Shown here piece after piece: positions 1-64,000 of a stretch of 64,000 nt of DNA. The stretch comes from a virus (Duplodnaviria > Heunggongvirae > Uroviricota > Caudoviricetes), in the IMG/VR virus record IMGVR_UViG_3300035208_005701. One strand, written 5' to 3'. The first letter of the stretch is position 1, and every line of letters starts with the position of its first letter. A program made the position numbers and the translations under genes. The notes beneath the pieces are model-generated. The model had not been told where the DNA came from, did not search any database, and saw only the letters and a program-made list of their open reading frames with translations.

Positions 1-2267
1 AATCGATTAATCTAGAAACTGGAGAAGTAGCAGAAAAACTTATTACTGATTATTCTAAACACGAAAATATAATAATGTACAAAATTCATGATCCAAAGAA
101 TAGATTTAAAGATTTTCATGTTTCAGAAGATCATAGTTTAATAGTATTCGATCATGAGGATAACAATTACAAAAAAATATCTCCACTTGAAATATTACAA
201 AATGTTTCAATTTATTCATTAGTTCAATGCAAAAATAAGAACAAGAAAAAGATTTCTGTTAAAGAAATAGAAATAAAATTAGATGAAACTATGACTACTG
301 GATATGATTTTACAGTAGTAGATAATTTTACATTTTCTACAGACGACGGGGTATTTGTTCAAGATACTATGGCATTATATACTCCAATTACAAAGGAAGC
401 AATAGAGGAAGTAAAAGAGAAAATGATATTATCTTATAGTCCTCACAGTTTACAAAAATTAGGAGATACATTTAATAAAGATATAGTAGCTGGAATTTAT
501 GTTCTTACTAAAAATCCACAAAAAGAATCAGATCCTGTGTTAATTAAAGATGAAACAGAATTTGAAAAATTGAATCCTAATACATACATAAAAAAAGAAG
601 GAATAAAAACAACAATTGGAAGAATTATATTTAACAGAGTTTTTCCTAAAGGGTATGACTATATTAATGAAGCAGTGAATGGTAAAAAACTTACATCATT
701 TGCTATGGACATTTTTAAGAATTACAATAAAGAAATTTACATGAAGTGGTGTAAGGATATTTTGACATTGTCTACTAAATACTTTACAATAATGGCTCCA
801 TCATTCTCTTTATCAGATTTAGAAATACCACCTCATGTATACAAATTAAAGGAAAAATTAAAATCTGTAAAAAATTCAGAAGAAGCAGATTTAATTTTAA
901 GACAAATTGAAAAAGAGATGTATGAATATTTAGTTAATACAAACAGCAATTTAGGAGTATTAGGTGAAGCAGGTGCTATTAAAAGTATATCACAGGTGAG
1001 ACAAATATTAGTAGCTAAAGGAATAATATCTGATAGCGAAGGAAAAACAGTAATGCCTCCTATATCTGATAGTTATTCTGATGGTTTATCAAGTAAGGAA
1101 TTTTTCTACAGTGGTATAGGTTCTAGAAAAGGTATTATTGATAGAGTTATTAATACATCAGAGACTGGATATATTTCAAGACAATTAGTATATGCTTTAC
1201 AAAGAGTTGAAGCAAGTAGAAAAGTAAAAGATTGCGGTACTAAAAAAACAATTACTTTAAGAATAAATGATGATATAGCTAAAAGGATATATGGAAGATA
1301 TATAATAAATGAAAGAACTAACAAAGTTGAACCATTTGATTCTAAAATTCATAAAAATGAAATAATCAAATTAAGAAGTCCATTATTTTGCAAGAGTGAA
1401 AAAATCTGTCATATTTGCTACGGAGATCTTTTATATCAAAACAAAACAGATTATGTTGGAATTTTAGCAGGTCATTTATTAGGTGAACCTTTATCTCAAA
1501 CTATTATGAAAAGTTTTCATTTAGGTGGAAGTATAAAAATGAAAACAACAAATTTCATAAAACAAGTCAGTCATATATTACATAAAAAAGAAGAAATAAT
1601 AGTTAATAAATCTTTTGAACAAAAAGGATCATCAATATATGCTAAAACTGATGGAATAATAGATATAGACATGAGTTATTATTTAGAACCAAAAAAAGAT
1701 GTTATTGTAAAAAGTGATGTAATTGAATTAAAATATGGATATTTTATGATATCTTTATCTGATATTGATTTAGATATTACATTGGATACAATAGTAAATG
1801 TTCCTTTAAAAGATAAAATAGTAACAGATAAGAATAATGGAAAAATTACAATTCAATTTAAAAAAGATGATTTGATTCTTAATTTACCACCAGTACCAGA
1901 AACTTTTTCAGAACAAGTAAAAATTATTAGAAGCTTATTAAATGGAAAACAACCATGGAAATCAGCAGAGCATTTTCTAATGAAGTTATATGATGTATAT
2001 AGAGAAATAGCTGGAGGAATTGATCTTGTACATATTGAAATTTTAGCTAGTAATTTATTAAGAGATAAAGGTAATCCATCATATCCAGCAAGATTGAATC
2101 AAAATTATCATGGGATGGTTGGGAATTTAAAGAATATTCCAGCATTGGAGTCATGGTTACAGTCTTTGAATTTTGAAAATATTAATAAATCTATAATGCA
2201 AGGTTTAGTTTATAATAGACCAGAACAAGAAACTATTCTAGAAGAAATAGTTTCTGGAAATCTATAA
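1..2267 (+). CDS. Multisubunit RNA polymerase beta'-like subunit, set 1 (5'-partial; the reading frame is open to the window start, and the listed ATG at 75 is probably internal)
   Basis: Bridge-helix-like GYISRQLVYALQ, then CxxC and trigger-loop-like GEPLSQTIMKSFHLGG, in the same order as in the paralog at 59799..62534 (SGYLTRKLVY ... RTFHIGG). No in-frame stop between nt 3 and 75. Confidence 0.7.
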   Translation, partial: SINLETGEVAEKLITDYSKHENIIMYKIHDPKNRFKDFHVSEDHSLIVFDHEDNNYKKISPLEILQNVSIYSLVQCKNKNKKKISVKEIEIKLDETMTTGYDFTVVDNFTFSTDDGVFVQDTMALYTPITKEAIEEVKEKMILSYSPHSLQKLGDTFNKDIVAGIYVLTKNPQKESDPVLIKDETEFEKLNPNTYIKKEGIKTTIGRIIFNRVFPKGYDYINEAVNGKKLTSFAMDIFKNYNKEIYMKWCKDILTLSTKYFTIMAPSFSLSDLEIPPHVYKLKEKLKSVKNSEEADLILRQIEKEMYEYLVNTNSNLGVLGEAGAIKSISQVRQILVAKGIISDSEGKTVMPPISDSYSDGLSSKEFFYSGIGSRKGIIDRVINTSETGYISRQLVYALQRVEASRKVKDCGTKKTITLRINDDIAKRIYGRYIINERTNKVEPFDSKIHKNEIIKLRSPLFCKSEKICHICYGDLLYQNKTDYVGILAGHLLGEPLSQTIMKSFHLGGSIKMKTTNFIKQVSHILHKKEEIIVNKSFEQKGSSIYAKTDGIIDIDMSYYLEPKKDVIVKSDVIELKYGYFMISLSDIDLDITLDTIVNVPLKDKIVTDKNNGKITIQFKKDDLILNLPPVPETFSEQVKIIRSLLNGKQPWKSAEHFLMKLYDVYREIAGGIDLVHIEILASNLLRDKGNPSYPARLNQNYHGMVGNLKNIPALESWLQSLNFENINKSIMQGLVYNRPEQETILEEIVSGNL

Positions 2268-2276
2268 GGATAATAT

Positions 2277-2522
2277 ATGAAATTAACAGATGTTTCTAGT
2301 GAATCATTAGAGAAATTAACTAATGTTATTTTAACTAATTTACATTTCAAGATACATCAAATATGGGCACATAGAAAAAGAAAAAATATAAATATACCTT
2401 TATTAAAAACGTGTCATGATATGATTAAAAGAGAAATGGAAAAAAGAAATTTGAATCATAATCCATTATCATTAAGAAAAAACTTAAATAAACTTTATAT
2501 TTACAATGAGGACATTGATTAA
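2277..2522 (+). CDS. Hypothetical small basic protein (81 aa) between the RNAP genes
   Basis: ORF with ATGA-type junction to the downstream gene; no recognisable motif. Confidence 0.35.
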   Translation: MKLTDVSSESLEKLTNVILTNLHFKIHQIWAHRKRKNINIPLLKTCHDMIKREMEKRNLNHNPLSLRKNLNKLYIYNEDID

Positions 2523-5500
2523 TGATACCACTAAACAAATTAAGATTATTCCCATTTCGTACTAAAAGTATAGCATTGGATACATTAAAAGGATTAGATA
2601 ATTATAACATATTTTTTCAACCAGAAAATTCTTTTTTTATAGATACTTATCCTTTTCTTAATATTCAAAAACGATTTATTAGGAAAGCTACTATAGTTCC
2701 AAGTGTGTTACCAAAGATGATTATCAGTAGTAAAACATTTATTGATTCTTTTAAAGGTACAGGATTGATTCCAATAAGGAAAACTACTGATTTAAAGAAT
2801 AATGTTTTTATAGATGGAACTCCGTTTTTTAAATTACTAGAAGATAAATTTGGAGCTGGTTCATATAGACGTCCATTTATGTTTGGAAGAGTTTTAAATT
2901 ATTATCAAATTATCAAAGAATTGGATTCAGATAGAAAGAATGTATTATTATATTATTTAGATTCAACTAAAGAATTTCCAAATTCATTAGTAGCTAGACG
3001 AATATTTCCACTCTTGTATTATATTTATAAAAATAAAACTGTTCCATTTTTTGATTATATTTTATTTGCTAATAAAACTATGGATGGTGAAATTACTTAT
3101 TCATTATTGAGTAGTCCTGATCAAGCAGTAAATATTTCTAGAATTTGGAGTTTATTTAAATCCCTCCAGAGTCCAACAATAGAGGAAAAGGATACATATA
3201 AAGAAGATATGGTTCACAAAGCCTCACAAACTTTAACTCAAAATATATCAGAGCCTCAAGATAACTCACAATTGATTCTCAATTCAGAGCAAGTTATTAA
3301 AGGATTTTTAAAGGATCAAAATGTCAATGTGCCTGAACAAGTAAATATTTCATCTGATAAAAGTTTACCTGTAGCAGTATCAGCAATAATATCTGGATTT
3401 ACTGGAAATAGTAATAAAGCTATTCAATATACTTCACAAGTTCCAGTTCAAGAATTACCTTCATTAATTAGACGATTGAAACAAGATATTTTACCAGAGA
3501 TAGTAGTTTCTACTAAATATAAAAACAAAAGTAGAGATATTGTATTTAGAGATGCAAAGATTCATGAAGTTAATAATAAAGAACCAAGTAAATTAATTAA
3601 TAAAAGATTTAGTGATTTTAATATTACATTTGAAAAGGATTTAAAGAATTCATTTGACTTGTTGAAAAATTCTAGATTTCCATTAACTCTTACAAAATTT
3701 ACAAAGGCAGATGTTCCTGTTGAAAATGGTGATTTGGAACCAAGTGATTTAGTTAGTTATTTTTTTACTTTAAAAGATGATTTAGGACATGATCATTCAA
3801 TTGAAATAGATATTCCAAAGATTAGTGATAATGGAACTTTTTTAATTAATGGTAAAAGAAAGTTTTTAATTTATCAAATAGTTATTGATCCAATTTATTT
3901 TATTAAACCTGGTCAAGCAAAATTGGAAACATTATATACAGCAATTTCTATTCATCATAAAAAAACAATTCATAAATCTTATTATGAAATTTATATGGCT
4001 GGATATGAATTACCTTTATTTCTACTATTATCCTATTTTATCGGTTTTGACGGATTAATGAAACTGTTTAATATTAGGTACAAGATAACAACAGATCAAC
4101 CGCCACAAGGTACTGTTTATGTCGTTTTATCGGATGGTGCATATATATGGATAGATCATAATAATGATGAAGCATCTATTAGATTAATAAATTCATTTTT
4201 TGAAATTAAACATAACTTTACTAAAACTTCTATTTTATCAAAACAAGAATGGCAATCAGCTATAGTATCTTATACAAGAACAAGAAATAGTATATTTAAA
4301 ATTGATAAAGTTATTATGAATATTATGGAACCTGTAGCTGTTCAAATTTTAAAAAGTAAAATGGAACCAACTACTTTACAAGATTGCATTTATTATATTT
4401 GTAAAGAATTAGCAACAGGTAGAGTGGATAAAAGAAATGATTTAGGAAATCAAAGAATAAGAAGTTCTGAGGTTTTTGTTTATCAAATTCAAAAATTAAT
4501 TTTAGCAGCATATACTAATTATGAATTTCAAAGAGGAGTTGGAGATAAGAATGCAACTTTTATATGTGAAACTAAAAAAGTAGTATCTGATATTGTAAAT
4601 TCTGAACTTGTTAGAGATCTTGAAAATATTAATCCAGTAGAAGAACTTTCATGTCTTACAAGAATTACTCCTGTAGGAGCTGGAGGTATTCCAGATGATA
4701 GAGCTTTAACAAACAAAGATAGAGGATTGCATGAATCGTATTATGGAAATATAGATCCGATGGATACTCCAGAAGGTGGAAATGTTGGATTAATAAATCA
4801 ATTAAGTATTTCTGCATCTGTATCTAATGCAAGAGGCACTTTTGGAACAAGCAAAGATGAAGATGAACGGGCTGGATCATTAAGTCCTTCTTCAGTTTTT
4901 ATTCCATATGTAGGATCATGTGATGGAAACAGAGTTATGTTTTCTTGCAGTCAAAGTAAACAAACAATACCAATAAATGGGAAGGAACAACCACTTGTTC
5001 AATCTGGTTATGAAACAAGTTTAACTCCTTTGTTAAGTGAATCATTTGTTAAGAAATCGCCAGTAGATGGAGTTATTATTAAACAAACAGATGCAACAAT
5101 AACTATTAAATCTGATTCAGGGAAAAATTATAAAGTTCCATTGGAATCCAAAGTTCTTATTTCTAGACAAGGTCAAGATTCATTAAATATATTCAAATCT
5201 ATTTATTCAGAAGGTACAAAGGTAGAGAAAGATCAAATAGTAGCAGAAGGAAAATATTTAGATAATGGTGTAATATGTTTAGGAACTAATTTGCTTACAG
5301 CTATAATGGGATGGAAAGGTTTTTCTTATGAAGATGGTTATGTAATTTCTGATAGAATAGCAAAACAAAAATTGACATCTGAATCATATGATGAAATAGT
5401 AATGGATCTAGATAAAGATGATATAATTAAGTTTGTAGCAGAAGAAGGAAAAATGACTCAAAAGGGTGAACCTTTAATAATAAGAAGTTCTAGTAAAATA

Positions 5501-6634
5501 GAAACTTTAGCTGGAGTAGAAGAAGATGAATTAGTTGAAGGACAAATTATTAAAAAATCACCTGGTGGTAAAATAATAGAAATTCAAATTTATCCAAATA
5601 TAAATATTAAACGTTTTCCTGTTTTAATAACTCCATTTTTAAAATTTAAAGCTAAGTATGAAGAGGTGAAAGGTTCTTTTCCTGAGAAATTTTTATTTAA
5701 TGTAGGTGGAGAAAAAATTCAATTTTCTGGAATTAGAATAGTTTTCAAATTAGAAAGATATGAAGAATGTGTAATTGGTGATAAAATAGCAAATATGCAC
5801 GGAGGTAAAGGTGTCATTGCTTACATTGAAAAAGAAGAAAATATGCCTCGTACTCCATTTGGTGAACATATTCAAGTAATTCTCAATCCTTTATCTTTAA
5901 TTAACAGAATGAATCCAAGTACATTGTATGAGATGTATACTGGATTAATTGCCAAATTTTTAGCATATCAGATAGTTTCATTAGATAGAACTAAATCAAT
6001 GAAATTAATTTCTCAAGTTTATAAAATCTTAGATCGAACAATAGATAAAAAGTTATCAACATCAATAATAAATAAATTTTTATCATTAAGTAATAATCAG
6101 TGGTTGCAATACATTGAAAATATTAGAACTAGAAATTATATTCTTCCTATAATAATTCCACCATTCCAAGCTCCATCTAAAAATGAAATATTGAAAGCAT
6201 TAGAGATAGTCGGAGCTGCACCAGAATATTATTTAACTTTACCTGAATATGGAATTAAAACATTTAATAAAGTAGCATGTGGATATATGTACTTCAAAAA
6301 GCTTGAAATGCAAAGTGAAGGAAAATTGACAGCTAGAAGTACAGGTAGATATCAAGAAAAAACATTACAACCAGTAGCTGGAAAAAAATCTGGTGGAGGA
6401 CAAAGAGTCGGAGAATTTGATACTTGGGCATTTGCTGGTCATGGAGCAGTAAATACTCTTAGAGAATTTTTTGGACCACTCAGTGATGATCAATCAACAA
6501 AAGATCAAATAATATATGATATAATTCAAACAGGGTCGGCTCATTACAGAGAACCAAAAACTTCACCTACAAGAAATATGTTAGAAATTTATATTAGAGG
6601 AATGATGCTTAATACAAGTTTGCATAATAAATAA
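2522..6634 (+). CDS. Multisubunit RNA polymerase beta-like subunit, set 1 (1370 aa, apparently unsplit)
   Basis: RITPVGAGGIPDDRALTNKDRGLHESYYGNIDPMDTPEGGNVGLINQL matches the RpoB ...GPGGL...HPTHYGR.CPIETPEGPNIGLIN block. C-terminal GGGQRVGEFDTWAFAGHGAVNTLRE matches RpoB GGQRFGEME.WALEAYGAA. Confidence 0.8.
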   Translation: MIPLNKLRLFPFRTKSIALDTLKGLDNYNIFFQPENSFFIDTYPFLNIQKRFIRKATIVPSVLPKMIISSKTFIDSFKGTGLIPIRKTTDLKNNVFIDGTPFFKLLEDKFGAGSYRRPFMFGRVLNYYQIIKELDSDRKNVLLYYLDSTKEFPNSLVARRIFPLLYYIYKNKTVPFFDYILFANKTMDGEITYSLLSSPDQAVNISRIWSLFKSLQSPTIEEKDTYKEDMVHKASQTLTQNISEPQDNSQLILNSEQVIKGFLKDQNVNVPEQVNISSDKSLPVAVSAIISGFTGNSNKAIQYTSQVPVQELPSLIRRLKQDILPEIVVSTKYKNKSRDIVFRDAKIHEVNNKEPSKLINKRFSDFNITFEKDLKNSFDLLKNSRFPLTLTKFTKADVPVENGDLEPSDLVSYFFTLKDDLGHDHSIEIDIPKISDNGTFLINGKRKFLIYQIVIDPIYFIKPGQAKLETLYTAISIHHKKTIHKSYYEIYMAGYELPLFLLLSYFIGFDGLMKLFNIRYKITTDQPPQGTVYVVLSDGAYIWIDHNNDEASIRLINSFFEIKHNFTKTSILSKQEWQSAIVSYTRTRNSIFKIDKVIMNIMEPVAVQILKSKMEPTTLQDCIYYICKELATGRVDKRNDLGNQRIRSSEVFVYQIQKLILAAYTNYEFQRGVGDKNATFICETKKVVSDIVNSELVRDLENINPVEELSCLTRITPVGAGGIPDDRALTNKDRGLHESYYGNIDPMDTPEGGNVGLINQLSISASVSNARGTFGTSKDEDERAGSLSPSSVFIPYVGSCDGNRVMFSCSQSKQTIPINGKEQPLVQSGYETSLTPLLSESFVKKSPVDGVIIKQTDATITIKSDSGKNYKVPLESKVLISRQGQDSLNIFKSIYSEGTKVEKDQIVAEGKYLDNGVICLGTNLLTAIMGWKGFSYEDGYVISDRIAKQKLTSESYDEIVMDLDKDDIIKFVAEEGKMTQKGEPLIIRSSSKIETLAGVEEDELVEGQIIKKSPGGKIIEIQIYPNINIKRFPVLITPFLKFKAKYEEVKGSFPEKFLFNVGGEKIQFSGIRIVFKLERYEECVIGDKIANMHGGKGVIAYIEKEENMPRTPFGEHIQVILNPLSLINRMNPSTLYEMYTGLIAKFLAYQIVSLDRTKSMKLISQVYKILDRTIDKKLSTSIINKFLSLSNNQWLQYIENIRTRNYILPIIIPPFQAPSKNEILKALEIVGAAPEYYLTLPEYGIKTFNKVACGYMYFKKLEMQSEGKLTARSTGRYQEKTLQPVAGKKSGGGQRVGEFDTWAFAGHGAVNTLREFFGPLSDDQSTKDQIIYDIIQTGSAHYREPKTSPTRNMLEIYIRGMMLNTSLHNK

Positions 6635-6642: not shown

Positions 6643-7248
6643 ATGAAAACTAATGATTTAGATTTATACATTTCAGATATATATGATCCATGGGGTGAAG
6701 AATCAATAAGTCAACAAGATATTATTGAAAATTCTTTTTTCTTTTATCAAATAGATAATATAATTGATTCTATAGGAACAAAAGATAGTCATCATAATAT
6801 AGATTTATTTTTTAATGAATTTTATAATAAATTAGATGACAATTCAAAAATAAGATTTATATGTGATTGCTACAATAAACTAGAAACAGAATACAAATTA
6901 GAAGTTATTAGAACCGATGTGTTACTATATGTTATATTAGAACAAATAGAAAAGTATATTTTACCATTGCTTTTTTTCTTTGAAAAGAATGAATGTATTG
7001 AAATGTTTGCTAATAATTTTTCTTATGTTGATATTTCAGTACTAAGGAATTTTGAACTATTCAATAAATATATAGAATTAAATTATAATGATTTTTTAAA
7101 TGAACTTAATAAAAACGAAACTATTCCATTATTGATCAGAAAATTTTTTAATTATTCTGATTTATCTAATGCTATTTTAATTTTGTGGAAAATTATAAAT
7201 AAAGATATAATTGGAATTAATTCACTACAAATACAAAAAGGAGTATAA
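6643..7248 (+). CDS. Hypothetical protein (201 aa)
   Basis: ORF tightly packed after the RNAP beta gene; no motif recognised. Confidence 0.45.
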   Translation: MKTNDLDLYISDIYDPWGEESISQQDIIENSFFFYQIDNIIDSIGTKDSHHNIDLFFNEFYNKLDDNSKIRFICDCYNKLETEYKLEVIRTDVLLYVILEQIEKYILPLLFFFEKNECIEMFANNFSYVDISVLRNFELFNKYIELNYNDFLNELNKNETIPLLIRKFFNYSDLSNAILILWKIINKDIIGINSLQIQKGV

Positions 7249-7249
7249 A

Positions 7250-7489
7250 ATGATAACGATAAAAAAGGGTAAATTGAGTTTAACTTTACCAAATGAGTAT
7301 ATAGCTTCATCACAAGAAACTACTGATGGAATGTATGTTAAATTTAGCGACGGAAGTGAAATTTTTTTAAGAAATATTGCGGTAGGACTTAATCAGATTA
7401 AATCTGCAGCAATGATTCTTTTTAATTCTAAGGCTTCAAATATAGTTATAGATTTAAATAATTCGACCAATCCTGTTTCATTATCTTAA
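7250..7489 (+). CDS. Hypothetical protein (79 aa). Start moved to the ATG after AAAGGAG, and the track start at 7211 overlaps the upstream gene
   Basis: aaaggagtataaa-ATG at 7250 (MITIKKGK...). Confidence 0.4.
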   Translation: MITIKKGKLSLTLPNEYIASSQETTDGMYVKFSDGSEIFLRNIAVGLNQIKSAAMILFNSKASNIVIDLNNSTNPVSLS

Positions 7490-7508
7490 TTTAATAGGCT
7501 TTGAATAG

Positions 7509-7526
7509 ATATATAGATCTATATAT
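7509..7526. repeat. Perfect 18-bp palindrome atatat-agatct-atatat in the intergenic region upstream of the 7616 gene
   Basis: Read directly: 7509-7514 atatat, 7515-7520 agatct, 7521-7526 atatat. Low complexity, but it sits in a 120-bp non-coding gap. Confidence 0.5.
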
Positions 7527-7615
7527 ATTTATACTTAGTAGTACTAAACTTTGTCTTGTGAGTTTTTAAGGAAGTTTTATAAGATTTTTTTTAAAACATG
7601 TTATGAAGGAGGAGA

Positions 7616-8582
7616 GATGAGAGTAAATGCTGATGATTATAAAGATTTAGGAAATTTTGATATTCCTAATGTAACTAGAAACACGTTCATGCCTGTATTT
7701 ATTACTGGAGAAAATAGACCTGGACAAGAGTATGGTAAACTACAGATTGGTGATTTAAGTAAACAACTATTTCAGAATAATTTGACTAAAGTATATTTTA
7801 TTCCACTATTTATAAAACAAATTTGGTCAAAAACAATAACTGAGAAAAATGATAAAAAAGAAGATTATGATAAACTTGTAGATTTTAGTTGGGACAATAA
7901 AGTTAAACCAAAACCAATTAATGATCCAGATTGTAAATATTCATATATTGTTGCTGGGTTATTTATAGATGAAAATACAAAGAAAAAAGTACCACATCCA
8001 TATATTGAAGACAAATATGCTGTTATATATTTTAATTGTAAAGGAACTAAAGTTGGATCCATTTTAGATTTTAATAAGTTGTTAGATACAACGATCAATG
8101 AATATATGTCAAGATCTGATTATAAAGCTCTTACAGCTGATGATAAAGGATCTTTTGATTATGACAGAGAAAAGATACTATGTGGATATAGAAGATTAAT
8201 TTGTAGTGCCGATGTAGCTTATGCGGATACAAATTTTGGAAAGAAGCATATTTTTAAATTTTCAGTGATCAAAGAAAAGACTCCGGATGGTAAAGGAGAA
8301 AGAAGTAAAGTATTAGATTCTGAAGATAGTAAAACAATATTGGATTTATGTAAAAATATTCAGAAAGATTTTACTAAGCAGTTCGATAGAACTCCTATGA
8401 TCAATAAGAATTTAAGTCAACCAGTAGTTACAACTGTATCGAATATAGAATTTGCTGATAATGTTAATAAGAATGATTCTTCAATACATGCTACTACTAA
8501 ACCAGTAAAAAATCCTGAACCGAAAGTAACTTCTCCAGCATCATCTAGTGATGATGCTTTTGATTTGGATTTAAGCTTATGA
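7616..8582 (+). CDS. Hypothetical protein with an acidic C-terminus (start at the ATG after AGGAGGAGAG, and the track ORF begins at 7551)
   Basis: RBS aggaggagag then ATG (MRVNADDYK...). The stop TGA overlaps the next start (ATGA). Confidence 0.45.
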
Positions 8583-9589
8583 TTGATAAAATAAACATTG
8601 CCAATTTATTGTTGACTAGAAGATGCAATTTATCTTGTAACTATTGTAGAATAGTGAAAGATATACCAGAAGTGTCAGAATATCCGTTAATGAACCATTA
8701 TAAAGAAAATGAATTATCCTCTGATAAATGGATAGAAATTATTTCTAGATTGAAGAAAAACAATCCAAATATTTTCTTAGTAATTTATGGAGGAGAACCT
8801 TTTTTATATAATGGATTAAGCGATGTAATAAATTATTGCCATTCTAATTCTGTTTATTATACAGTTATTAGTAATAATACAGACGGAATTCAAAAAAGAA
8901 TAGAAAAAGTTAGACAAGAAATTGGCGGTGTTTTTAAAGGGTTTACATCATCTGTAGACCCTTTAATTTTTTCTTCTTCTAATCAAACTTCAGATGAAGC
9001 AGAAAAAAGTTATAAAGGTTTTAATAGATTATTAGAAATGAAAAAAAGTGGAAAAGCAGAAGATGTAGTTGCTGAAATTACAGTTACTAAATATAGTATT
9101 CAATATTTATATCAATTAATTAGAACATTATCTGATAATGGAATATATTCATCAGTTACTGTTATTGATAAACAAAAAACTAAATATTATGATTTTTCTA
9201 CTGTTGATGATGAAGATTTATTAGTTCAAAAAAATAATGGTGTTAGAAACGAATTTGATAAAATTCAAAAAGATGATTCTTTATTAATTCATATTCCAAA
9301 AATGTTAGATCAAATGTATGATGATTTACCATATAATATGAAATGTACTTTAAAAGAAAATGTGCATAACGTCACAATAGATGCAGATGGAAGTTTCAGA
9401 TTATGTTTAAGAATTAGAGGTGTAGATATTCCCAAAGTAAAATTAGATAATATTATAGATGTAAATGGGAATATTCAAAAGGAAGTTAAAGAATCTATTA
9501 ATAAAGATTACGATAATTATTGTCGTAATTGCTTATGGACATGTATGTATTTTTCAGATAAATTTAGTGATAATATTTTAAATCACTAA
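8579..9589 (+). CDS. Radical SAM enzyme with a C-terminal Cys-rich (SPASM/twitch-like) region
   Basis: RRCNLSCNYCRI (Cx3Cx2C) near the N-terminus, GGEPFL SAM-binding motif, and C-terminal cysteines (CLRIRG...CRNCLWTC). Confidence 0.7.
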   Translation: MIDKINIANLLLTRRCNLSCNYCRIVKDIPEVSEYPLMNHYKENELSSDKWIEIISRLKKNNPNIFLVIYGGEPFLYNGLSDVINYCHSNSVYYTVISNNTDGIQKRIEKVRQEIGGVFKGFTSSVDPLIFSSSNQTSDEAEKSYKGFNRLLEMKKSGKAEDVVAEITVTKYSIQYLYQLIRTLSDNGIYSSVTVIDKQKTKYYDFSTVDDEDLLVQKNNGVRNEFDKIQKDDSLLIHIPKMLDQMYDDLPYNMKCTLKENVHNVTIDADGSFRLCLRIRGVDIPKVKLDNIIDVNGNIQKEVKESINKDYDNYCRNCLWTCMYFSDKFSDNILNH

Positions 9590-9610
9590 AAAAGAAAAAG
9601 GAGTTTAAAG

Positions 9611-9913
9611 ATGAAATGGAAATTACCTAAAATTGGAGATGTTAGAATAGTTAATAAATTTCTTTGGAAGCCTTTAGAGATCAATGGAGAAAAAAGATGG
9701 TTTGAAAAAGTAAAAATACAACAAATTTTTACTAAAGAAATATTTGAACCAAGTAATAAGTATTTAAAAGATGATCCTGAAGCTAGATTTTCTCCGCATA
9801 GTTTTTATATTCATGGAGAGTTTAGATGGATAGATGTAAAATTTATCGATTCAGTAATACAAGATGGAGAAATATATAACAATGAAATGGCAAGTACAAA
9901 AATTAAAAAATGA
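9611..9913 (+). CDS. Hypothetical protein, first of two tandem paralogs (MKWK...KFLWKPLEINGEKRWFEKVKIQQIF)
   Basis: Shares the ...KFL..PLE(I/L)NGEKRW(F/L)E.VKI.QIF block with the next ORF. Confidence 0.4.
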   Translation: MKWKLPKIGDVRIVNKFLWKPLEINGEKRWFEKVKIQQIFTKEIFEPSNKYLKDDPEARFSPHSFYIHGEFRWIDVKFIDSVIQDGEIYNNEMASTKIKK

Positions 9914-10052
9914 AAATGAAAGAATTATAACTAAATTTTTAATATTTCCATTGGAGCTAAATGGAGAAAAAAGATGGTTAGAATTTGTAAAAATAAAACA
10001 AATATTTTTTAAAGGTAACTGGTTAAATACTGAATTTTCAGAACGGAGTTAA
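9885..10052 (+). CDS. Hypothetical small protein, second tandem paralog (start moved to ATGAAATGG giving MKWQVQ...; overlaps the upstream paralog in another frame)
   Basis: N-terminus MKW matches paralog 1; conserved block ITKFLIFPLELNGEKRWLEFVKIKQIF. Confidence 0.35.
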   Translation, partial: KWQVQKLKNENERIITKFLIFPLELNGEKRWLEFVKIKQIFFKGNWLNTEFSERS

Positions 10053-12316: not shown

Positions 12317-13838
12317 AGTTAAACAGTTTTATCTAAATTATCTCAAGACTAAAAAAAGAGGAATTCTTGCTGCTGTAACTTATAGATTAAAAGATCCAGA
12401 GATAAAAACAACTTTGGATCTTTTAGTTCCTCTTCCATATAATTTATCTCTTAAATTTCATATGTGGTGTATTAGGAATTATGAATTGCCGAAATGTTTA
12501 TATTGTACCAAAGATTTACTTTTTAATTTGAAAAAAGGATTTTATACAAGTACCAAGCATAGATGCTGCTTCAAACCTCCTTATAATAATATTTATAGCA
12601 ATTATGAACAATTTTTCAATATGCCATCTTTAATGAAAGTTGATTATAAAACGTTCATACAACGACCAAATATTAAAAAAATAATTACTGAATTTTTAGA
12701 AAAATTTCCATATTTTTCTGATTATAAAACTCATATTTTCTCTCTATTTTCTTATGTTAAAAATTATGATGATTTATCATCTATACCTTATTGTAGAATT
12801 TGTGGAAAAAATAAAGTTTCTATTAATTTAACTTTATTATCCAAAAATAAGATATATTTTAATGATTATTGTTTTTCTTGTGTTCAAAAGTCAACTATGG
12901 AAAAAAGTATATCTTCAATAAAACAAAAATACAATGTAACAAATGTCAGTCAATTAGATTTTGTTAAGAAGAAGAAAGAGCAAACTAGTTTAAAAAATTA
13001 TCATGTAAAAAATCCAATGCAATCTGAAATAGTTAGATCTTCTCATAAACAAACATGTATTGATAGATATGGTGTTGAAAACGTATCTCAATCTGATCAA
13101 ATTAAAGTTCAAAAAAAAGAAACAATTTTAAAAAATTTCGGAAATTGGGAAACATTTATACAACATACATTAGGTGCATTTTGTAAAAGTAAAGGAGTTG
13201 AAAATGTATCTCAATTGAAAGAAGTAAAAGATAAAAAGATTTTAACATTTTTAAATCATTATGGAGTTGAAAATTGTTTTCAATCAGAAGAGATAAAATC
13301 TCAATCTAAATTAACATGTTTGAATAGATATGGATATGAATATTATTCACAAAGTATAGAAGCAAGAAGAAATACGAGAGAGAGATTATTAAATCAAATT
13401 GAAATTCAATTTTTGAACGGTGAACCTCTTGTTCCCACAATAGGGATATTTGAAAGAGAGTGTTTTAATTATTTAGAAAGAGAATGTAATATTCAAATTC
13501 TTAGAAATTCTAGATGTATAGGTTATTTTGTTGATGGATTTATACCATATATAAATTTATGCATAGAGTTTGATGAGGAGTTTCATTTTGATAAATATGG
13601 AAATTTATTAGATGTAGATTTAAGAAGACAAAAAGAAATTCAAGATTATCTATCATGTGAATTTTTTAGAATTTCTAAAAAGAATTGGAATGTAAATAGA
13701 GAAAGAGTAGTTACTAATTTTAAAGAAATAATGGAAAAATGTTCAAATAAAATATCAGATAATAATATTAAAGTCATTTTCGAAAATAGACAATACAGAA
13801 TAATTAGGAGTAACTATGAAGATAAGGAAAATAAATAA
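12288..13838 (+). CDS. Free-standing putative homing endonuclease between the two intein halves, with a PD-(D/E)xK / Vsr-like nuclease core at the C-terminus
   Basis: Inserted exactly between IntN and IntC in a different frame. Tandem modules of about 30 aa (RYGVENVSQSDQIK / KGVENVSQLKEVK / YGVENCFQSEEIK / RYGYEYYSQSIE). C-terminal GYFVDGFIPYINLCIEFDEEFH resembles the D...(E/D)xK 'IEVDG..H' nuclease signature. Confidence 0.5.
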   Translation: MQKSLEKLDKVKQFYLNYLKTKKRGILAAVTYRLKDPEIKTTLDLLVPLPYNLSLKFHMWCIRNYELPKCLYCTKDLLFNLKKGFYTSTKHRCCFKPPYNNIYSNYEQFFNMPSLMKVDYKTFIQRPNIKKIITEFLEKFPYFSDYKTHIFSLFSYVKNYDDLSSIPYCRICGKNKVSINLTLLSKNKIYFNDYCFSCVQKSTMEKSISSIKQKYNVTNVSQLDFVKKKKEQTSLKNYHVKNPMQSEIVRSSHKQTCIDRYGVENVSQSDQIKVQKKETILKNFGNWETFIQHTLGAFCKSKGVENVSQLKEVKDKKILTFLNHYGVENCFQSEEIKSQSKLTCLNRYGYEYYSQSIEARRNTRERLLNQIEIQFLNGEPLVPTIGIFERECFNYLERECNIQILRNSRCIGYFVDGFIPYINLCIEFDEEFHFDKYGNLLDVDLRRQKEIQDYLSCEFFRISKKNWNVNRERVVTNFKEIMEKCSNKISDNNIKVIFENRQYRIIRSNYEDKENK

Positions 13839-13926
13839 AAGAAAATTAAATAATATAAATTTTTGCGACTTAACTACAGGAACTGGAAATTTTGTATTAG
13901 CAAATGGAAATGTTGTTATTCATAAT
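13816..13926 (+). mobile_element. Split-intein C-fragment (37 aa) at the start of the C-terminal topoisomerase polypeptide
   Basis: MKIRKINKRKLNNINFCDLTTGTGNFVLANGNVVIHN followed by S. The length and pattern match DnaE-type IntC sequences (...HNFALKNGFIASN). Confidence 0.65.
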
Positions 13927-14280
13927 AGTCATATTACTACATTATTAATGATTGTATTTTTAAAACTAGTCCCTGAATTAATAAAAAAAGGTCACATTTT
14001 TACAGCAGAGATGCCTCTTTATGGTGCTCAAGTTGGAAAAGTATTTACTCCTTTTTATACAGATGAGGATGTAGAAAAATTTAAATTATCTAATCCTAAT
14101 GTCAAATTACAAAGATATAAAGGTTTAGGTGAAATGAATCCAGATCAATTGAAAGTTTGTTTATTAGATTCTTCTAGACGATTGCATAAAATTGAATTTC
14201 CTGATAATAGCGAAGATCTTTTAAAACTTATGATAGATGCTGATCTCAAAAGACAATTGGTACAAAGGGAGGAAGAATGA
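13816..14280 (+). CDS. IntC plus the C-terminal part of the GyrB-like topoisomerase II subunit (completes the Toprim and tail)
   Basis: After HN: SHITTLLMIVF (GyrB SHIRTLLLTFF) ... YKGLGEMNPDQL (GyrB KGLGEMNP.QL). Confidence 0.75.
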   Translation: MKIRKINKRKLNNINFCDLTTGTGNFVLANGNVVIHNSHITTLLMIVFLKLVPELIKKGHIFTAEMPLYGAQVGKVFTPFYTDEDVEKFKLSNPNVKLQRYKGLGEMNPDQLKVCLLDSSRRLHKIEFPDNSEDLLKLMIDADLKRQLVQREEE

Positions 14281-16459: not shown

Positions 16460-17836
16460 TTGATCATAATGTATTTTATAAAAACATCAGCGATCAGAAT
16501 TCCTACTTCTTTATCTAATCATGAATGGTATCAAAATATTATTTCAGATTTGACAAGAAAAGAACGTGATTATAATAATCCTACGGTAGAAGTATCTAAA
16601 ACATTTTTTGATATAAGGGATGGGATGATGCTTCTGCCTAGGAATTATAATGTTCAAATATCTGGACATGATATTATTGATTGTAATTCTAGTGGTGAGG
16701 ATATAAAAATAGAATTTAAATCTTCATTCAAAAATGATTTGCAAAAAGAAGCTCATAATGGAATGATAAATAGCGAATCATGTGTATTATGTATGCAACC
16801 AGGTGAAGGAAAAACTGTAATAGCTATATCAGTAATTTGTACATTTAAAAAGAAATCTATAATTTTCGTACATAAAGATTCTTTAGCTGTTCAATGGAAA
16901 GAGAGATTTTTACAACATTCTGATTTAAAAGATGATGATGTAGGAATGTTAAAAACCCATGAACATCTAGAAATTTTAAAGAAACCAGTAGTTATCAGTA
17001 CAGTTCAAACATTATGTAGTATGATAAGAAGATTACCAAATATAGAAAAAATATTACATGATGCTAATTTTGGTATAGCTTTTTGGGATGAATGTCATAC
17101 TTCAGTAAGTGCTGAAATGTTTTCGTTGAGTTCATTATATTTACCAGTAAAAAGATCTTATGGATTATCTGCAACCCCTTCTAGAAGTGATGGAAATTCT
17201 GATATTATAGAAAAACATGTAGGGAAAATATTTATTCCTTCTGGTTCTGGGCAAACTTTAACTCCACTGATAGTTGTTGTACAATTTAATCATGGAGTTT
17301 TATGTAATCATCGAGAATATATTTTTAATGATTTTCGAACAGGAAAGAAAGAATTTTCAAGAGAGAGATATTTGCAAATGTTAGTTAGTAAAAAAAATCA
17401 AATGTATGTTAATACAATGAAAAAAGTTATTAAATATATTTATAATTCTAAAAGAATAACTTTATTTCTATCAGATAGAATTAAAATTTTGGATGTTGGG
17501 TCTGAAGTTATTCCAAAATTTGATGTTGGTTTTTTTATTCCTAGAAGTGGAGAAAATAGAGATACTGATTTATTAAAGAAATTTGTATTTAGTACTTATG
17601 GTTCTGCTAGAGATGGAACAGATAGGCCACAATTTGATTGTTTAGTTATGGGAACGCCTACATCCAATTTAGCACAGTGTGTAGGTAGAGTTTTAAGACC
17701 ATATCCAGGAAAATTGCAACCTGTAGTTTTTGATTTTGTAGATATCGGATGTTCTCAAATGGAAGGATTATTTGAAAATAGAAAAAATTTTTATGAAAGA
17801 AAAAATTGGAATATAGAATATAGATTGATAAAATAA
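16460..17836 (+). CDS. Superfamily-2 DExH helicase / ATPase
   Basis: Walker A-like QPGEGKTVIA and DExH box FWDECH. Confidence 0.55.
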   Translation: MIIMYFIKTSAIRIPTSLSNHEWYQNIISDLTRKERDYNNPTVEVSKTFFDIRDGMMLLPRNYNVQISGHDIIDCNSSGEDIKIEFKSSFKNDLQKEAHNGMINSESCVLCMQPGEGKTVIAISVICTFKKKSIIFVHKDSLAVQWKERFLQHSDLKDDDVGMLKTHEHLEILKKPVVISTVQTLCSMIRRLPNIEKILHDANFGIAFWDECHTSVSAEMFSLSSLYLPVKRSYGLSATPSRSDGNSDIIEKHVGKIFIPSGSGQTLTPLIVVVQFNHGVLCNHREYIFNDFRTGKKEFSRERYLQMLVSKKNQMYVNTMKKVIKYIYNSKRITLFLSDRIKILDVGSEVIPKFDVGFFIPRSGENRDTDLLKKFVFSTYGSARDGTDRPQFDCLVMGTPTSNLAQCVGRVLRPYPGKLQPVVFDFVDIGCSQMEGLFENRKNFYERKNWNIEYRLIK

Positions 17837-21273: not shown

Positions 21274-21280
21274 TTATAAT

Positions 21281-46845: not shown

Positions 46846-46945
46846 TATTTATTTTGCATCTATAGAGTAGTATTTGTGATTTCTCATCATAAGGTCTCGA
46901 TGCAATTTTGAGTAAACTCTTATTTAATTTAAAGGATATATTTAT

Positions 46946-59798: not shown

Positions 59799-62534
59799 AT
59801 GAAATTGGAGTTTTTTAATATTGATAAATTTTGTGAAAAACTCGCCCCTATCACCTCTAATAAAATATATACTAGAAAGGGATTTCATCCTGACGGAATG
59901 TTTTCTGAGAAAATTTTTGGTCCGGTTAGAACTGGAACTTGTTCTTGTGGAATTTGGTGGGGAAGAGGAAGATTTGGAGAAACTTGCCCCCAATGTGGAG
60001 TTAAAATAACACATAGTAGCACTAGAAGAAAAATATTTGGAAAAATAGTTTTACCATTTAAAATTATTAATCCTATTATGTATTTTTTAATATCCAAAGT
60101 TGGAAAAATGACAATACATAAAATAATAGATGATATGATTGCTGATGATAAAATTAGTTACTATTATGATGAAAAGAAAAAGAAATATATCAAAGTAGTA
60201 GAATCCATTGAAGCAGGAGCCCCACCACCAGAATATCCAGAAGGAGTTAGAGTTTTTAATAGTCAACAAGGATTGCATGACTTGATTTTATCTGAAGCAG
60301 AGAAGAGGAAAGAAACAAATAGTGATTGGAATTTTATATATGAGAATTGGGATAAATTTTATATACAAAATATTATAGTTTTGCCTCCAGAATTTAGACC
60401 AGTCTCTAAATCTAAAGATGTTCAAATGAGAGATAAAATGAATGAGTTTTATCTACCCATTCTTAATTTTACATTGACTATGAATCAAGAAGATTTAGAT
60501 TCATCTATTCATTCTAAAATAAGTTCGGTCAATTTTAGAAATTTACATGAACATGTAATGAATTTGTATAATTATATATTTGATAAATTTTCCAAGAAAA
60601 CTGGATTGATTAGAGGATTTATTCTTGGAAAAAGAATAGATTTTTCAGGAAGAGCTGTAATTACTCCAGATCCTACTCTTAAATTAGATGAATGTTCTTT
60701 ACCATATACTTTAGCTTTGGAATTATATAAATTGGATGTTGCAGAAGTTCTTTTACAAAAAAGAATGCAGAAAAGATATGATCCAGCTATTAAGTATATT
60801 GATAAATGTATTGAACTTAATGATACTTGTTTAATAGATATTTTAAGACAAATTACAGCAGACAAAAGTTGTATGTTAAACAGGCAACCGACTCTTCATA
60901 GATTAGGTATTTTAACTTTCAAAATAAAAATTAATACTGATTATGTTATTAAGATTCATCCATTAGTTTGTGAACCATATAATGCAGATTTTGATGGTGA
61001 TCAGATGGCTGTATATATTAGTTTATATGAAAAGACTCAGAAAGAATCTGTAGATAGATTAGGGATTTTATCTAATCTTATTTCTCCATCTACTGGTAAC
61101 TTTTCTTTAGGAGTGAATCAAGATATTGTTTTAGGTCTTTATTATCTTACTAAAGAAGGAGAAACACCAGAAGTTATATTAGAAGATGGAACTAAAACGA
61201 CACAAGGAAGAGTGGAATTTAATAAGATTTTCCCTACTAATTTTCCATTCATGAATTGTACTATTACAAAAACTACTATTAGAGCTTTATTAAATGTATT
61301 AGTTAAAAATTATGATAGTACTATAGTAAAAGATATATTAGATAATATAAAGGATTTAGGATTTAAAGAAACTACTCTTAGAGGTTGCACAATGTCTTTG
61401 GAAAATATAGAATTTCCAGAAGCAAGAGAGATAGTTACTAAGATATGTGATGATGAAAAAACATCTATTAATGAAAAATTCTTTTTATTACAAACTCCAG
61501 ATATTAAGAAAAAGATAAAACAATCATTTCCATATTCTGATTATATAGAATCTGGTTCTAGAGGTTCTTGGGATCAAGCGAAACAGTTAACTTTTTGTAG
61601 AGGATTTATTTCTAATTCAAAAGGTGAAATCATTCCAACTCCTATTAAAAGTAGTTTGTTAGATGGTTTGAATGAAGAAGAATTTTTTATATCCTGTTAT
61701 GGATCTAGAAAAGCTTTGCTTGATGTCGCTTTAAATACTGGAGTATCTGGTTATCTTACAAGAAAACTAGTATACTGCGCAGTAAATTCTGAACTTGGTG
61801 AAGAAGATGATTGCGGAACAACTGATACTTTAAATTTATCTATTCCTAAAAATTCAGATGAAATTGATTCTGAAAAATTGATGAGAAGTTTAATAGGAAG
61901 ATGGGTAAACAATAAAGGTCAATTGGAATTAATAACTGATGATAATTATAGAACTTATATTGGAAAAGATGTAGAAGTAAGATCTCCTATATTTTGTAAG
62001 CATAATAAAATATGTAAAAAATGTTACGGGGATACATACAAATATCTTCATTCTAATTATATTGGAATATTGTCAGCTTCAGCATTAGGGGAAGTTGCTA
62101 CTCAGTTAACGTTGAGAACTTTTCATATTGGTGGTATTGCTCAAATGTCAAAAACTCAAACAGATACTAGTCAAAAAGATATTATTAATGATTTAAGTTT
62201 GGTAAAGAAAATGTTACATGGTCATGCAAAATTACCATTCGATCAATTAATAATGGAATTATTTAAAGTATATGTTAATCATAAAACTTTATTATTAGTG
62301 CATTTTGAAATTATAGTTTCTCAGATGATGAGGAAAAATGGTAAAAGATGGAGAACTCAAGATGATAGAAGTATGGAAGATTATGAACTTATTTCTATAG
62401 AAAATGTTCCGTCTAAAGAATCGTTCTTATTAGCTTTAGCATTTTCTAAACCATACAGTTATATAGTTAATGGAATTTTGGAATCCACTACTACAGATGG
62501 AATTCTTGAACGAATTATGACAAATGAAATATAA
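59799..62534 (+). CDS. Multisubunit RNA polymerase beta'-like subunit, set 2 (start at the ATG after GGAAGGAG)
   Basis: Zn-binding CSCGIWWGRGRFGETCPQCG, catalytic NADFDGDQMAV, bridge-helix SGYLTRKLVY, trigger-loop TQLTLRTFHIGG. Confidence 0.85.
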   Translation: MKLEFFNIDKFCEKLAPITSNKIYTRKGFHPDGMFSEKIFGPVRTGTCSCGIWWGRGRFGETCPQCGVKITHSSTRRKIFGKIVLPFKIINPIMYFLISKVGKMTIHKIIDDMIADDKISYYYDEKKKKYIKVVESIEAGAPPPEYPEGVRVFNSQQGLHDLILSEAEKRKETNSDWNFIYENWDKFYIQNIIVLPPEFRPVSKSKDVQMRDKMNEFYLPILNFTLTMNQEDLDSSIHSKISSVNFRNLHEHVMNLYNYIFDKFSKKTGLIRGFILGKRIDFSGRAVITPDPTLKLDECSLPYTLALELYKLDVAEVLLQKRMQKRYDPAIKYIDKCIELNDTCLIDILRQITADKSCMLNRQPTLHRLGILTFKIKINTDYVIKIHPLVCEPYNADFDGDQMAVYISLYEKTQKESVDRLGILSNLISPSTGNFSLGVNQDIVLGLYYLTKEGETPEVILEDGTKTTQGRVEFNKIFPTNFPFMNCTITKTTIRALLNVLVKNYDSTIVKDILDNIKDLGFKETTLRGCTMSLENIEFPEAREIVTKICDDEKTSINEKFFLLQTPDIKKKIKQSFPYSDYIESGSRGSWDQAKQLTFCRGFISNSKGEIIPTPIKSSLLDGLNEEEFFISCYGSRKALLDVALNTGVSGYLTRKLVYCAVNSELGEEDDCGTTDTLNLSIPKNSDEIDSEKLMRSLIGRWVNNKGQLELITDDNYRTYIGKDVEVRSPIFCKHNKICKKCYGDTYKYLHSNYIGILSASALGEVATQLTLRTFHIGGIAQMSKTQTDTSQKDIINDLSLVKKMLHGHAKLPFDQLIMELFKVYVNHKTLLLVHFEIIVSQMMRKNGKRWRTQDDRSMEDYELISIENVPSKESFLLALAFSKPYSYIVNGILESTTTDGILERIMTNEI

Positions 62535-62565
62535 AAAATTGTTTAACTAGGAAAAGGAGAATGTA

Positions 62566-64000
62566 TGTTAGAAGTACCATCTTATAAACTTCCAGCTACA
62601 AATGTATTTAATTTTAGAAGTCTTGACTGGCAGGAAAAGATAGTCGAGAATGTTTCTAAAATGCTGGAAGCCGGTAGAAAGTATGGGATACTTGTAAATA
62701 GTATATCGATTGATTATCCAGAAAAAGTAGATGTAGCTGAATTAAAAAGAACTACATATAAAGTGTTAAATATAGATTTGAATTATGATGGAGGAGAGAA
62801 AACTCAACAATTGCATTATGATATCCCTTGGTTGGTTAATAATCATTTCTATATTGGAGGAAATCAAAAAGTTACAATTTATCAGTTATTTGATATTCCA
62901 ATGATTTGTAGAAAAAATATAATAAAAATTAGAACTAATATTCAATCATTTCTATTAGAAAAAGTATCATCTAAACGTCATATTTATAATTATCATTTAA
63001 GTATTTTTGGAAAAAAAGTTGCATTTGCGTTTATAGTTGTAGCTTTTTATGGAGTAGAAGGAGTAAAACAAAAATTCTTATTGGATGATAATTATGAATA
63101 TGTTGGTGAAATGAAGTTGAAATCTGACTATAAATTATTACTTGATGATATTGTTTCTGTTTTAAGAGATGATACACTTGATAAAAATAGATTATTGGGT
63201 CAAGTATTTCCTAGAAAAAATGATCCAGATATAGTTGATGATTTGAAATTAATTACAGAAGTAGATATATATAGTAAGAAATTTATGTATACTGATAATG
63301 TAATTGATGAATTCATTTATGGTATAAATCATAATAAAGCTGATGATTGTGATTATAATAACAAAAGAATAAGATTTTCTGAACAGATTATTTATTGTAA
63401 TTTGGCAAAAGATTTTTATTCTATGATTAATGTTTTAAAGAAAAATAAAAAGTCGAAATTTACAAATAATTCAAAATCTATTTTACAGGGGATAAATGTA
63501 AGTAGTATCACCCAATTTGATTTTTCTATTAATCCTTTGGGCGAATTAGCTTTATTAATTAGAACTTCTTTGAGTGGACCTGGTGGATTTGAAAAACAAA
63601 ATGTTCCTTCTTATTTAAGAGATTTGCATCCTTCTCAATTAGGATTGATAGATCCTGCAGATACGGCTGATAGAGATGGTTGTGGAACTATTCAATATTT
63701 AAATCCATCTGTAAGAATTGATGAAAATGGAAAATTTTACAAAGGTGATCATAACAATATAACTTCTATTGCAGTTAGTCATGTTCCATTTTTCGAACAT
63801 GATGATGCTACTAGATTGCAAATGTCATCTTCTCAACAGAGACATTCTATAATGTTGAAGAATTTTGATACTCCGATGATTCAAACTGGAGTAGAAGGAA
63901 TGTATACTGAACATACTTCCTTTTTATTTAAAGCTGAAAGAGATGGTATAGTGTTACATTTAGATGATGATATTATTATTGTTCAATATGATAATAAATC
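62566..64000 (+). CDS. Multisubunit RNA polymerase beta-like subunit, set 2 (3'-partial; continues past the window end)
   Basis: ...LSGPGGFEKQNVPSYLRDLHPSQLGLIDPADTADRDGCGTIQYLN matches the RpoB ..GPGGL...VRDVHP.HYGR.CPIETPEG.N.GLIN region. Paralogous to 2522..6634. Confidence 0.7.

Follow-up and report, generated by a model that had tools for sequence, protein, structure and literature searches.

Introduction

In jumbo phages such as phiKZ and AR9, two paralogous sets of the RNA polymerase (RNAP) subunits β and β′ are encoded per genome, one forming a virion RNAP (vRNAP) and the other a non-virion RNAP (nvRNAP), and β′ is distributed over two and β over two or three polypeptides (Iyer 2021, Sokolova 2020). 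According to reviews of 2020 and 2026, it is unknown whether vRNAP and nvRNAP arose by one duplication or by two acquisitions, and the splitting of their subunits is unexplained. Here, we analyse a stretch of 64,000 nucleotides of a tailed phage (Caudoviricetes; IMG/VR record IMGVR_UViG_3300035208_005701), which carries one β′/β gene pair at its beginning (set 1) and another one at its end (set 2). This stretch, in the following called the window, represents part of the phage genome and derives from a single-sample metagenomic assembly.

Full-length β and β′ genes have been described for the multimeric-RNAP-encoding Caudovirales (mReC), of which 97 metagenomic contigs were reported (Weinheimer & Aylward 2020; PMC7481178). 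The main text of this study treats the mReC RNAP as one clade, with the jumbo-phage RNAPs excluded, and discusses neither two sets per genome nor virion and non-virion roles nor inteins. The mReC capsids are of the Gp23 type rather than the phiKZ type (PMC7481178). A further known arrangement that resembles the present locus is the fractured gene, described by Dassa et al. 2009 (PMC2677866) as a gene in two halves, each bearing an intein piece, that flank a free-standing endonuclease gene.

The bare observation of two RNAPs in one phage is not new, since dual phage RNAPs are known and the lineage concerned is published. New in the literature searched are the assignment of one mReC paralogue to the vRNAP lineage and of the other to the nvRNAP/bacterial side, the encoding of both enzymes as unsplit subunits, and the fracture of a β′ gene at its catalytic aspartates by a split intein. 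A later paper linking the mReC sets to the virion and non-virion RNAPs of jumbo phages was not found in this literature.

Two divergent RNAP gene pairs in one phage genome

The original prediction, made from the letters of the window, proposed two highly divergent β/β′ gene sets, and Pfam RNAP domains in all four genes confirm that two β′→β pairs are present. The set 1 β′ gene had been placed at positions 1..2267. Its frame is indeed open on the plus strand from base 3 to 2267 (stop codon 2265-2267; Pfam Rpb1_5, E 4e-22, and Rpb1_3), but the first 121 codons (3-365) encode part of the C-terminal piece of an intein rather than RNAP. The RNAP portion is a vRNAP-type C-extein of 633 aa (366..2267, plus strand), which starts with TMALYTPIT and carries the bridge helix, a zinc site (DCGT...CKSEKICHICYGD), the trigger loop and a family-specific C-terminal domain (...DKGNPSYPARLN...). 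It aligns with residues 659-1021 of the bacterial β′ subunit 8k60_D and shares 39-47% identity with the full-length β′ proteins of relatives (1002-1017 aa). The set 1 β gene (2522..6634, plus strand; Pfam Rpb2_6, E 5e-33, Rpb2_3 and Rpb2_7) is unsplit as predicted, encoding 1370 aa in one uninterrupted open frame. Its product is identical to a metagenomic protein (P0001) on a 78,896-bp contig of the Joint Genome Institute and 43-61% identical to other members of the family; scans of IMG/VR with this protein returned no locus in the first and two loci in a later round. The N-terminal ~480 aa of this β subunit have no bacterial counterpart and gave no significant match in the PDB, and they align with the N-terminus of AR9 g189 (27 bits).

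In relatives of set 1 (33-61% identity, contigs of up to 321 kb), the order is always β′ (1002-1017 aa) followed by β (1370-1424 aa), and genes for PAAR, Phage_base_V or amidase proteins, that is a tail/baseplate/lysis block, often lie ahead of the pair. In the window, an 81-aa open reading frame (ORF) of unassigned function lies between both genes (2277..2522, plus strand; no match in Pfam or PHROG). At this position, relative L001 has an ORF of 51 aa; in L002 and L004, β′ and β are direct neighbours. Among distant relatives of set 1 β, P0065-P0074 are fused β-β′ proteins of 2055-2107 aa encoded on 52-220-kb contigs, a further architecture of RNAP genes that occurs in large uncultivated elements.

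The set 2 β′ gene is unsplit and encodes 911 aa (59799..62534, plus strand; Pfam Rpb1_2/3/4/5). Its ORF opens at 59784, and the predicted start at 59799 is upheld by the consensus of homologues, which begins at this second ATG. The protein carries an N-terminal zinc ribbon (CSCG..CPQCG), the catalytic motif NADFDGDQMAV and a second zinc site, and matches the bacterial β′ subunit 8dy7_D with 323 bits. It is identical to P0078, likewise from a contig of 78,896 bp, and has more than 120 relatives among the matches listed (42-67% identity, contigs of up to 330 kb). The set 2 β gene begins at 62565, one base ahead of the position proposed originally, with an ATG behind a GGAG ribosome binding site; its first 478 aa (62565..64000, plus strand; Pfam Rpb2_3) are present before the window ends. 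In relatives, a set 2 β′ of ~900 aa is always followed directly by a β of 870-1050 aa. The phages YerA41 and RHph_TM30, which have a single set, possess a set 2-like enzyme only.

The expected deep divergence between both sets was borne out, with 30% identity over 408 aa for β′ and 29% over 227 aa for β. Both sets are also far from bacterial RpoB and RpoC, at about 30% identity, and since the best bacterial or isolated-phage record does not exceed about 32%, derivation from a host rpoBC locus was rejected. Pseudogenisation of either set was rejected as well, as the RNAP frames are open. One element of the original prediction has to be corrected: the CxxC pair that follows the bridge helix and precedes the trigger loop, regarded as an extra feature of both β′ paralogues, is the second zinc site normally found in bacterial β′. 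The motifs RSPLFCKSEKICHICYGD in set 1 and RSPIFCKHNKICKKCYGD in set 2, which conform to RSP(L/I)FCK..KIC..CYGD, match the sequence RS.LTCES..GTC..CYG of the solved bacterial subunits 8dy7_D and 8k60_D column for column, and the upstream DCGT cysteine of the site is conserved too.

Relationship to virion and non-virion RNAPs of jumbo phages

To compare both sets with jumbo-phage enzymes, four family profiles were built from 34, 51, 116 and 23 sequences, respectively, all members being verified homologues. The jumbo-phage sets comprised phiKZ gp178/gp180/gp80/gp149 (virion) and gp55/gp71-73/gp74/gp123/gp68 (non-virion) as well as AR9 g189/g145/g264/g078 (virion) and g105/g089/g270/g154/g226 (non-virion). 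The AR9 labels are those of its GenBank record, and phiKZ gp80, gp149, gp178 and gp180 carry the note 'structural head protein'. The AR9 virion subunits β′N (g145), β′C (g264) and β (g189) scored 177, 129 and 213 bits with the set 1 profiles as compared to 47, 94 and 96 bits with those of set 2. Likewise, the phiKZ virion proteins gp180 and gp178 reached 124 and 130 bits with set 1, whereas set 2 yielded 36 bits and no hit, respectively. The opposite preference was seen for the AR9 non-virion subunits β′N (g270; 92 bits with set 1, 122 with set 2), β′C (g154; 92 and 103 bits), βC (g089; 145 and 191 bits) and βN (g105; no hit and 99 bits) and for phiKZ gp55 (25 and 48 bits). In a neighbour-joining (NJ) tree of the N-terminal half of β′ (343 columns), set 1 grouped with phiKZ gp180 and AR9 g145 with a support of 95/100. 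Both nvRNAPs came together in 100/100, and the virion and non-virion enzymes of the jumbo phages in 2/100.

Judged by these comparisons, set 1 is an enzyme of the vRNAP lineage. Set 2 scores best on the nvRNAP/bacterial side, where the trees leave its specific sister group undecided. The jumbo-phage pattern of a virion and a non-virion RNAP, as put forward in the original prediction, is supported by homology, for set 1 by profiles and by the β′ tree and for set 2 by most profiles, with weak grouping of the latter in the trees.

The likeness to phiKZ and AR9 extends to the presence of two paralogous β/β′ sets per phage genome and to an SNF2-type helicase nearby. Homologues of σ, α and ω were not seen among the ~45 ORFs scanned in the window, which is part of the genome. 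In other respects the locus differs. There is one full-length gene per subunit, with a β of 1370 aa and β′ subunits of ~1010 aa (after splicing) and 911 aa, whereas the jumbo-phage subunits are split. The genes for β′ and β are adjacent here and scattered there. The jumbo-type split of β′ after the double-psi β-barrel domain is not seen in either set; the only split found here is intein-mediated and located directly after DFDGD. In addition, the other modules of the window are T4-like, unlike those of phiKZ and AR9.

Both sets co-occur in the mReC lineage

Both sets are present on one contig in at least six independent cases including the window, and in three further contigs of the mReC supplement. 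Outside this supplement, such contigs were recognised by the same contig identity or the same length in bp. They include Ga0366841_1000116 (92.7 kb; P0002 and P0083), a 35.4-kb contig (P0007 and P0130) and contigs of 137,619, 147,639 and 167,376 bp; the mReC supplement contigs with both size classes measure 149,482, 277,139 and 308,335 bp. Two relatives, L014 (Ga0114951_10001711) and L063 (Ga0172381_10000022), which share 47% and 36% identity with set 1 β′, are named in Supplementary file 5 of PMC7481178. The β/β′ pairs in this file form two size classes, of which the one with ~1360-1386 / 1004-1017 aa corresponds to set 1 and the one with ~997-1053 / 899-976 aa to set 2. Because these relatives appear in the mReC table and the protein sizes match both classes, the phage can be assigned by sequence to the published mReC lineage, whose 'single clade' of RNAPs can be re-read as two paralogues.

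Set 1 β′ is fractured by a split intein

The region upstream of the window was read on contig L007 (Ga0172381_10006642), which is identical to the window over bases 1-1771 (0 mismatches) and adds 9.8 kb of upstream sequence. There, the N-terminal half of β′ is encoded by an ORF of 406 aa that ends with ...SADFDGD/SINGSIGISYGENKTKWIGQISELENAEV, the last 29 aa being the N-terminal intein piece (IntN), and is closed by two stop codons. This β′N-IntN gene is followed by an ORF with DUF7487 repeats, by an inverted IS607-type pair on the minus strand (L007 7427-9290; a TnpA serine recombinase with HTH_17/Resolvase domains and a TnpB with OrfB_IS605/Cas12f-TNB domains) and by a 106-aa MTES_1575/DUF559 (Vsr-like) fragment. 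Behind the latter, the ORF for the C-terminal intein piece (IntC, 151 aa) and β′C starts at L007 position 9695, 88 nt upstream of the window, with MKLFKKLGRH.... The C-terminal 121 residues of IntC occupy window positions 1..365 (plus strand, frame from base 3) and end with ...DDGVFVQD, and the β′ C-extein begins at the Thr encoded by bases 366-368, resulting in the junction ...DDGVFVQD/TMALYTPIT. Hence, the predicted unsplit state applies to set 1 β and set 2 β′, but not to set 1 β′, which is fractured just upstream of the window. In sum, ~3.3 kb with three mobile-element genes break the β′ frame on L007. This insertion is absent from ~75 orthologous β′ loci, which read NADFDGD[QTARSI]MA.. 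without a break, and the predicted spliced length of 377 + 633 = 1010 aa equals that of the intein-free orthologues.

The same three-ORF layout, with no insertion sequence (IS), is present in L008 (53% identity, 105-kb contig). Here, the endonuclease gene is intact (8509-9924) and encodes 471 aa with a zinc finger, DUF7487 repeats, a CIEFDGDMWH nuclease motif and MTES_1575/DUF559. In L007 the IS607 element interrupts the endonuclease gene and leaves the RNAP and intein ORFs untouched. P0205 represents a third IntC-β′C protein with the same start.

A word-based protein search with IntC detected one relative only. The window IntC is colinear with same-site inteins in L008, L026, L078 and P0205. 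In L026, L032 and L078, the intein runs unbroken across the position of the window-type break and is interrupted later, at the usual position of a nested endonuclease. The interruption in L026 and L032 lies around 7194-7900; in L026 it comprises ~190 nt that contain stop codons and lack an evident start codon for a C-terminal piece, so that this intein may either be split in a further form or be decaying.

Several comparisons address the fold. The joined intein pieces, used as a profile against the PDB, gave a weak match to the Pab PolII intein 2lcj (E 0.0095), and the L026 intein gave a weak match to Pfam Intein_splicing (E 3e-4, below the curated cut-off). An AlphaFold2 (AF2) model of P0205 has a mean predicted local distance difference test score (pLDDT) of 60, with ~70-84 over most of residues 1-137. 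A Foldseek search of the PDB with this model retrieved inteins almost exclusively, the best hit being 9hth (E 6.6e-6), the cysteine-less Aes123 PolB1 split intein. Alignment by hhalign to Npu DnaE and gp41-1 was not significant and covered only block F/G. Conserved intein residues are Ser1, the block-B motif S(E/Y)DH, the end ...GV(F/Y)(V/I)QD and Thr+1, and a catalytic cysteine is missing. On the basis of reading frames, conserved residues and the structural model, we conclude that set 1 β′ is a fractured gene with a split intein positioned directly after the catalytic DFDGD; joining of the two β′ halves by trans-splicing is predicted.

Atypically split inteins with short N-terminal pieces include AceL-TerL, GOS-TerL and VidaL. 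The β′ intein resembles these and the cysteine-less inteins in its short IntN, long IntC, Ser1, Thr+1 and lack of a catalytic cysteine. It differs from them in that the C-terminal Asp is preceded by Gln, instead of His-Asn at the end, and in that sequence similarity is not significant. The Dassa-type endonuclease is reportedly a Vsr-like/EDxHD enzyme, such as I-Bth0305I. The endonuclease encoded here is Vsr-like as well (DUF7487 plus MTES_1575/DUF559), a likeness that is drawn from descriptions of the Dassa-type enzyme. The set 1 locus shares with the fractured genes of Dassa et al. 2009 the break at a conserved site, the intein piece on each ORF and the free-standing endonuclease gene in between. 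It is unlike the cases presented there in its target, the RNAP β′ active site, in the break near the intein N-terminus (29 + 151 aa) rather than at the canonical endonuclease-insertion loop, and in the L007 endonuclease gene being itself cut by an IS607 element.

A second fractured gene of the window, gyrB, carries a canonical split intein and constitutes a textbook case of the arrangement in Dassa et al. 2009. The GyrB-N-IntN ORF (10058-12316) ends its extein at ...DADGDG/CARYDSLIYL... and includes an IntN of ~100 aa. The gene for a DUF7487 homing endonuclease of 516 aa (12288-13838) lies between the GyrB halves, followed by IntC-GyrB-C (13816-14280) with the junction ...NGNVVIHN/SHITTLL. In the relatives L001 and L002, GyrB is contiguous.

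Inteins are also seen in the other RNAP paralogue: the set 2-type β′ homologues P0136 (1062 aa) and P0143 (1285 aa) carry a Pfam Intein_splicing domain, indicating that inteins invade both RNAP paralogues in this lineage.

Proposed roles of the two enzymes and alternative explanations

We consider it probable that set 1 is packaged and serves early transcription, that set 2 carries out later transcription, and that the β′ halves of set 1 are joined or held together by the split intein. In this model, the phage, an uncultivated and large tailed member of mReC, would transcribe its genome with two RNAPs of its own. Set 1 (β′ of ~1010 aa after splicing, β of 1370 aa), as the vRNAP orthologue, would be made late, packaged and injected together with the DNA, and would then transcribe the early genes, those of set 2 among them. 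Set 2 (β′ of 911 aa, β of ~1000 aa), which is compact, more bacterial-like and probably nearest to the non-virion RNAPs, would be made after infection and transcribe middle and late genes, to which set 1 and the adjacent tail genes would belong. The set 1 β′ chain, interrupted by a split intein right behind the catalytic DFDGD, would be restored when its halves associate via the intein pieces and protein trans-splicing generates DFDGD-TMALYTP. As a weaker alternative, the split intein may merely hold the β′ halves together.

A number of observations speak against parts of this model. Packaging of set 1 is deduced from orthology only. Among the non-virion proteins, phiKZ gp74 scores equally with the profiles of both sets (50 bits with set 1, 47 with set 2), and phiKZ gp123, gp71 and gp68 were detected by neither family profile, being too diverged. 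In the β′ N-half tree, the grouping of set 2 with the nvRNAPs, with or without YerA41, is weak (17-42/100), an NJ tree of the β catalytic core does not resolve the groups and joins set 1 with the vRNAPs in only 15/60, and long-branch attraction readily distorts NJ trees when proteins evolve fast. The upstream fracture was read on L007, that is in another assembly than the window's own contig. The intein versions of L007 and L008 escape detection by Pfam, the P0205 model is of moderate quality, and the intein C-terminus is a conserved Gln-Asp rather than His-Asn. Asp- or Gln-terminated inteins are said to be capable of splicing. Finally, a search for a shared or repeated intergenic promoter motif that would define temporal classes found none.

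Both polymerases could instead be non-virion enzymes that divide labour in another way, i.e. between early and late genes or between template or modification states, or one of them could have a non-transcriptional role; in that case, set 1 would resemble vRNAPs through common descent while not being packaged like them. This explanation, to which we assign a clearly smaller but real probability, is favoured by the deduction of packaging from orthology, by the T4-like modules (Rnl1, Pnk, SbcCD, gyrase), by the Gp23-type rather than phiKZ-type capsids of mReC and by YerA41 and RHph_TM30, which carry a set 2-like enzyme alone. However, the vRNAP signal agrees across β′N, β′C, β and the lineage-specific N-terminus of β, and set 1 adjoins tail/baseplate genes. 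Moreover, host RNAP would still be needed for the earliest genes if both enzymes were non-virion, making two phage enzymes harder to explain.

We regard it as improbable that set 1 is decaying, with β′ destroyed by an intein remnant, an endonuclease gene and IS607, leaving set 2 as the only functional enzyme. Such decay would fit the ~3.3 kb with three mobile-element genes that interrupt the β′ frame and the intein lacking a canonical C-terminal His-Asn. It is difficult to reconcile with the IS607 element residing in the endonuclease gene rather than in an RNAP or intein ORF, with the full-length open frames of both β′ halves and of the 1370-aa β, and with the retention of the fracture point in L008 (53% identity) and P0205 with conserved intein residues; in addition, the canonically fractured GyrB in the same genome indicates that the phage tolerates such genes. 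Least probable is an assembly chimera of two phages or a bacterial contamination contributing one of the sets, even though a metagenomic window from a single-sample assembly leaves room for it. The chimera was rejected, as GC content is uniform (22-30%), GC skew is positive throughout, nearly all ORFs lie on the plus strand (of the listed ORFs of ≥100 aa all except one), and both sets occur together on at least nine independent contigs from various samples and assemblers. Contamination is opposed by the identity to bacterial RpoB/C, which is about 30% or less.

The full-length genes may have evolutionary implications, which we put forward tentatively and with less than even confidence. If unsplit orthologues of both enzymes are truly preserved here in full length, the duplication giving rise to vRNAP and nvRNAP would predate the fragmentation seen in phiKZ and AR9, which may have been driven by mobile elements. 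The fractured β′ would then be a living intermediate and its intein a new atypically split type. A widespread lineage with both enzymes in full length would supply alignable intermediates between bacterial RNAPs and the fragmented RNAPs of jumbo phages, making the question of origin directly testable by phylogeny and structure. With the fractured β′, a route would be seen in action along which mobile elements interrupt an RNAP gene at the position of highest conservation while the gene survives. If true, a natural split intein with a 29-residue N-terminal piece and no catalytic cysteine would also be of the type sought for protein labelling and could be used for protein semisynthesis.

Further gene content of the window

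PHROG and Pfam gave no candidate for an extra RNAP subunit among the small ORFs next to the two sets. The window contains no capsid or terminase gene, and the upstream region of relatives holds tail/baseplate genes only. An SF2 helicase (superfamily 2) of the SNF2/ResIII type (16460..17836, plus strand; Pfam ResIII, DEAD and SNF2) is encoded ~10 kb downstream of set 1, a position kept in L001, L002 and L004. A Rad25-like SNF2 helicase co-occurs with RNAP subunits in jumbo phages (Iyer et al. 2021), and the helicase may be a partner of the phage RNAP.

Two further genes are syntenic with set 1 in relatives, namely those for a radical S-adenosylmethionine (SAM) protein (8579-9589) and a QueD-like 6-pyruvoyl tetrahydropterin synthase (PTPS; 16031-16459, E 2e-27). 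Together they suggest a DNA modification of the 7-deazaguanine type, which could affect promoter recognition by the phage RNAPs. The T4-like modules comprise an Rnl1-like RNA ligase, polynucleotide kinase, SbcD/SbcC and gyrase, the latter consisting of a topoisomerase IV/GyrA-like subunit and GyrB. An HNH endonuclease gene is also present. A PP2C phosphatase gene (25004-25846) adjoins a gene for a 573-aa protein (25824-27545) with a weak, sub-threshold match to Ser/Thr kinases, and this pair could be a phage-encoded phosphorylation switch. Further features are a tmRNA (20912-21275; Rfam 105 bits) with the tag peptide ENSIDFSPLSLAA according to ARAGORN, and tRNAs for Pro (46772-46846), Leu (47188-47270) and His (48528-48601). 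Two paralogues of PHROG 7293 are encoded at 41683-42765 and 44380-45651, the former showing weak, sub-threshold matches to the radical SAM and SPASM domains.

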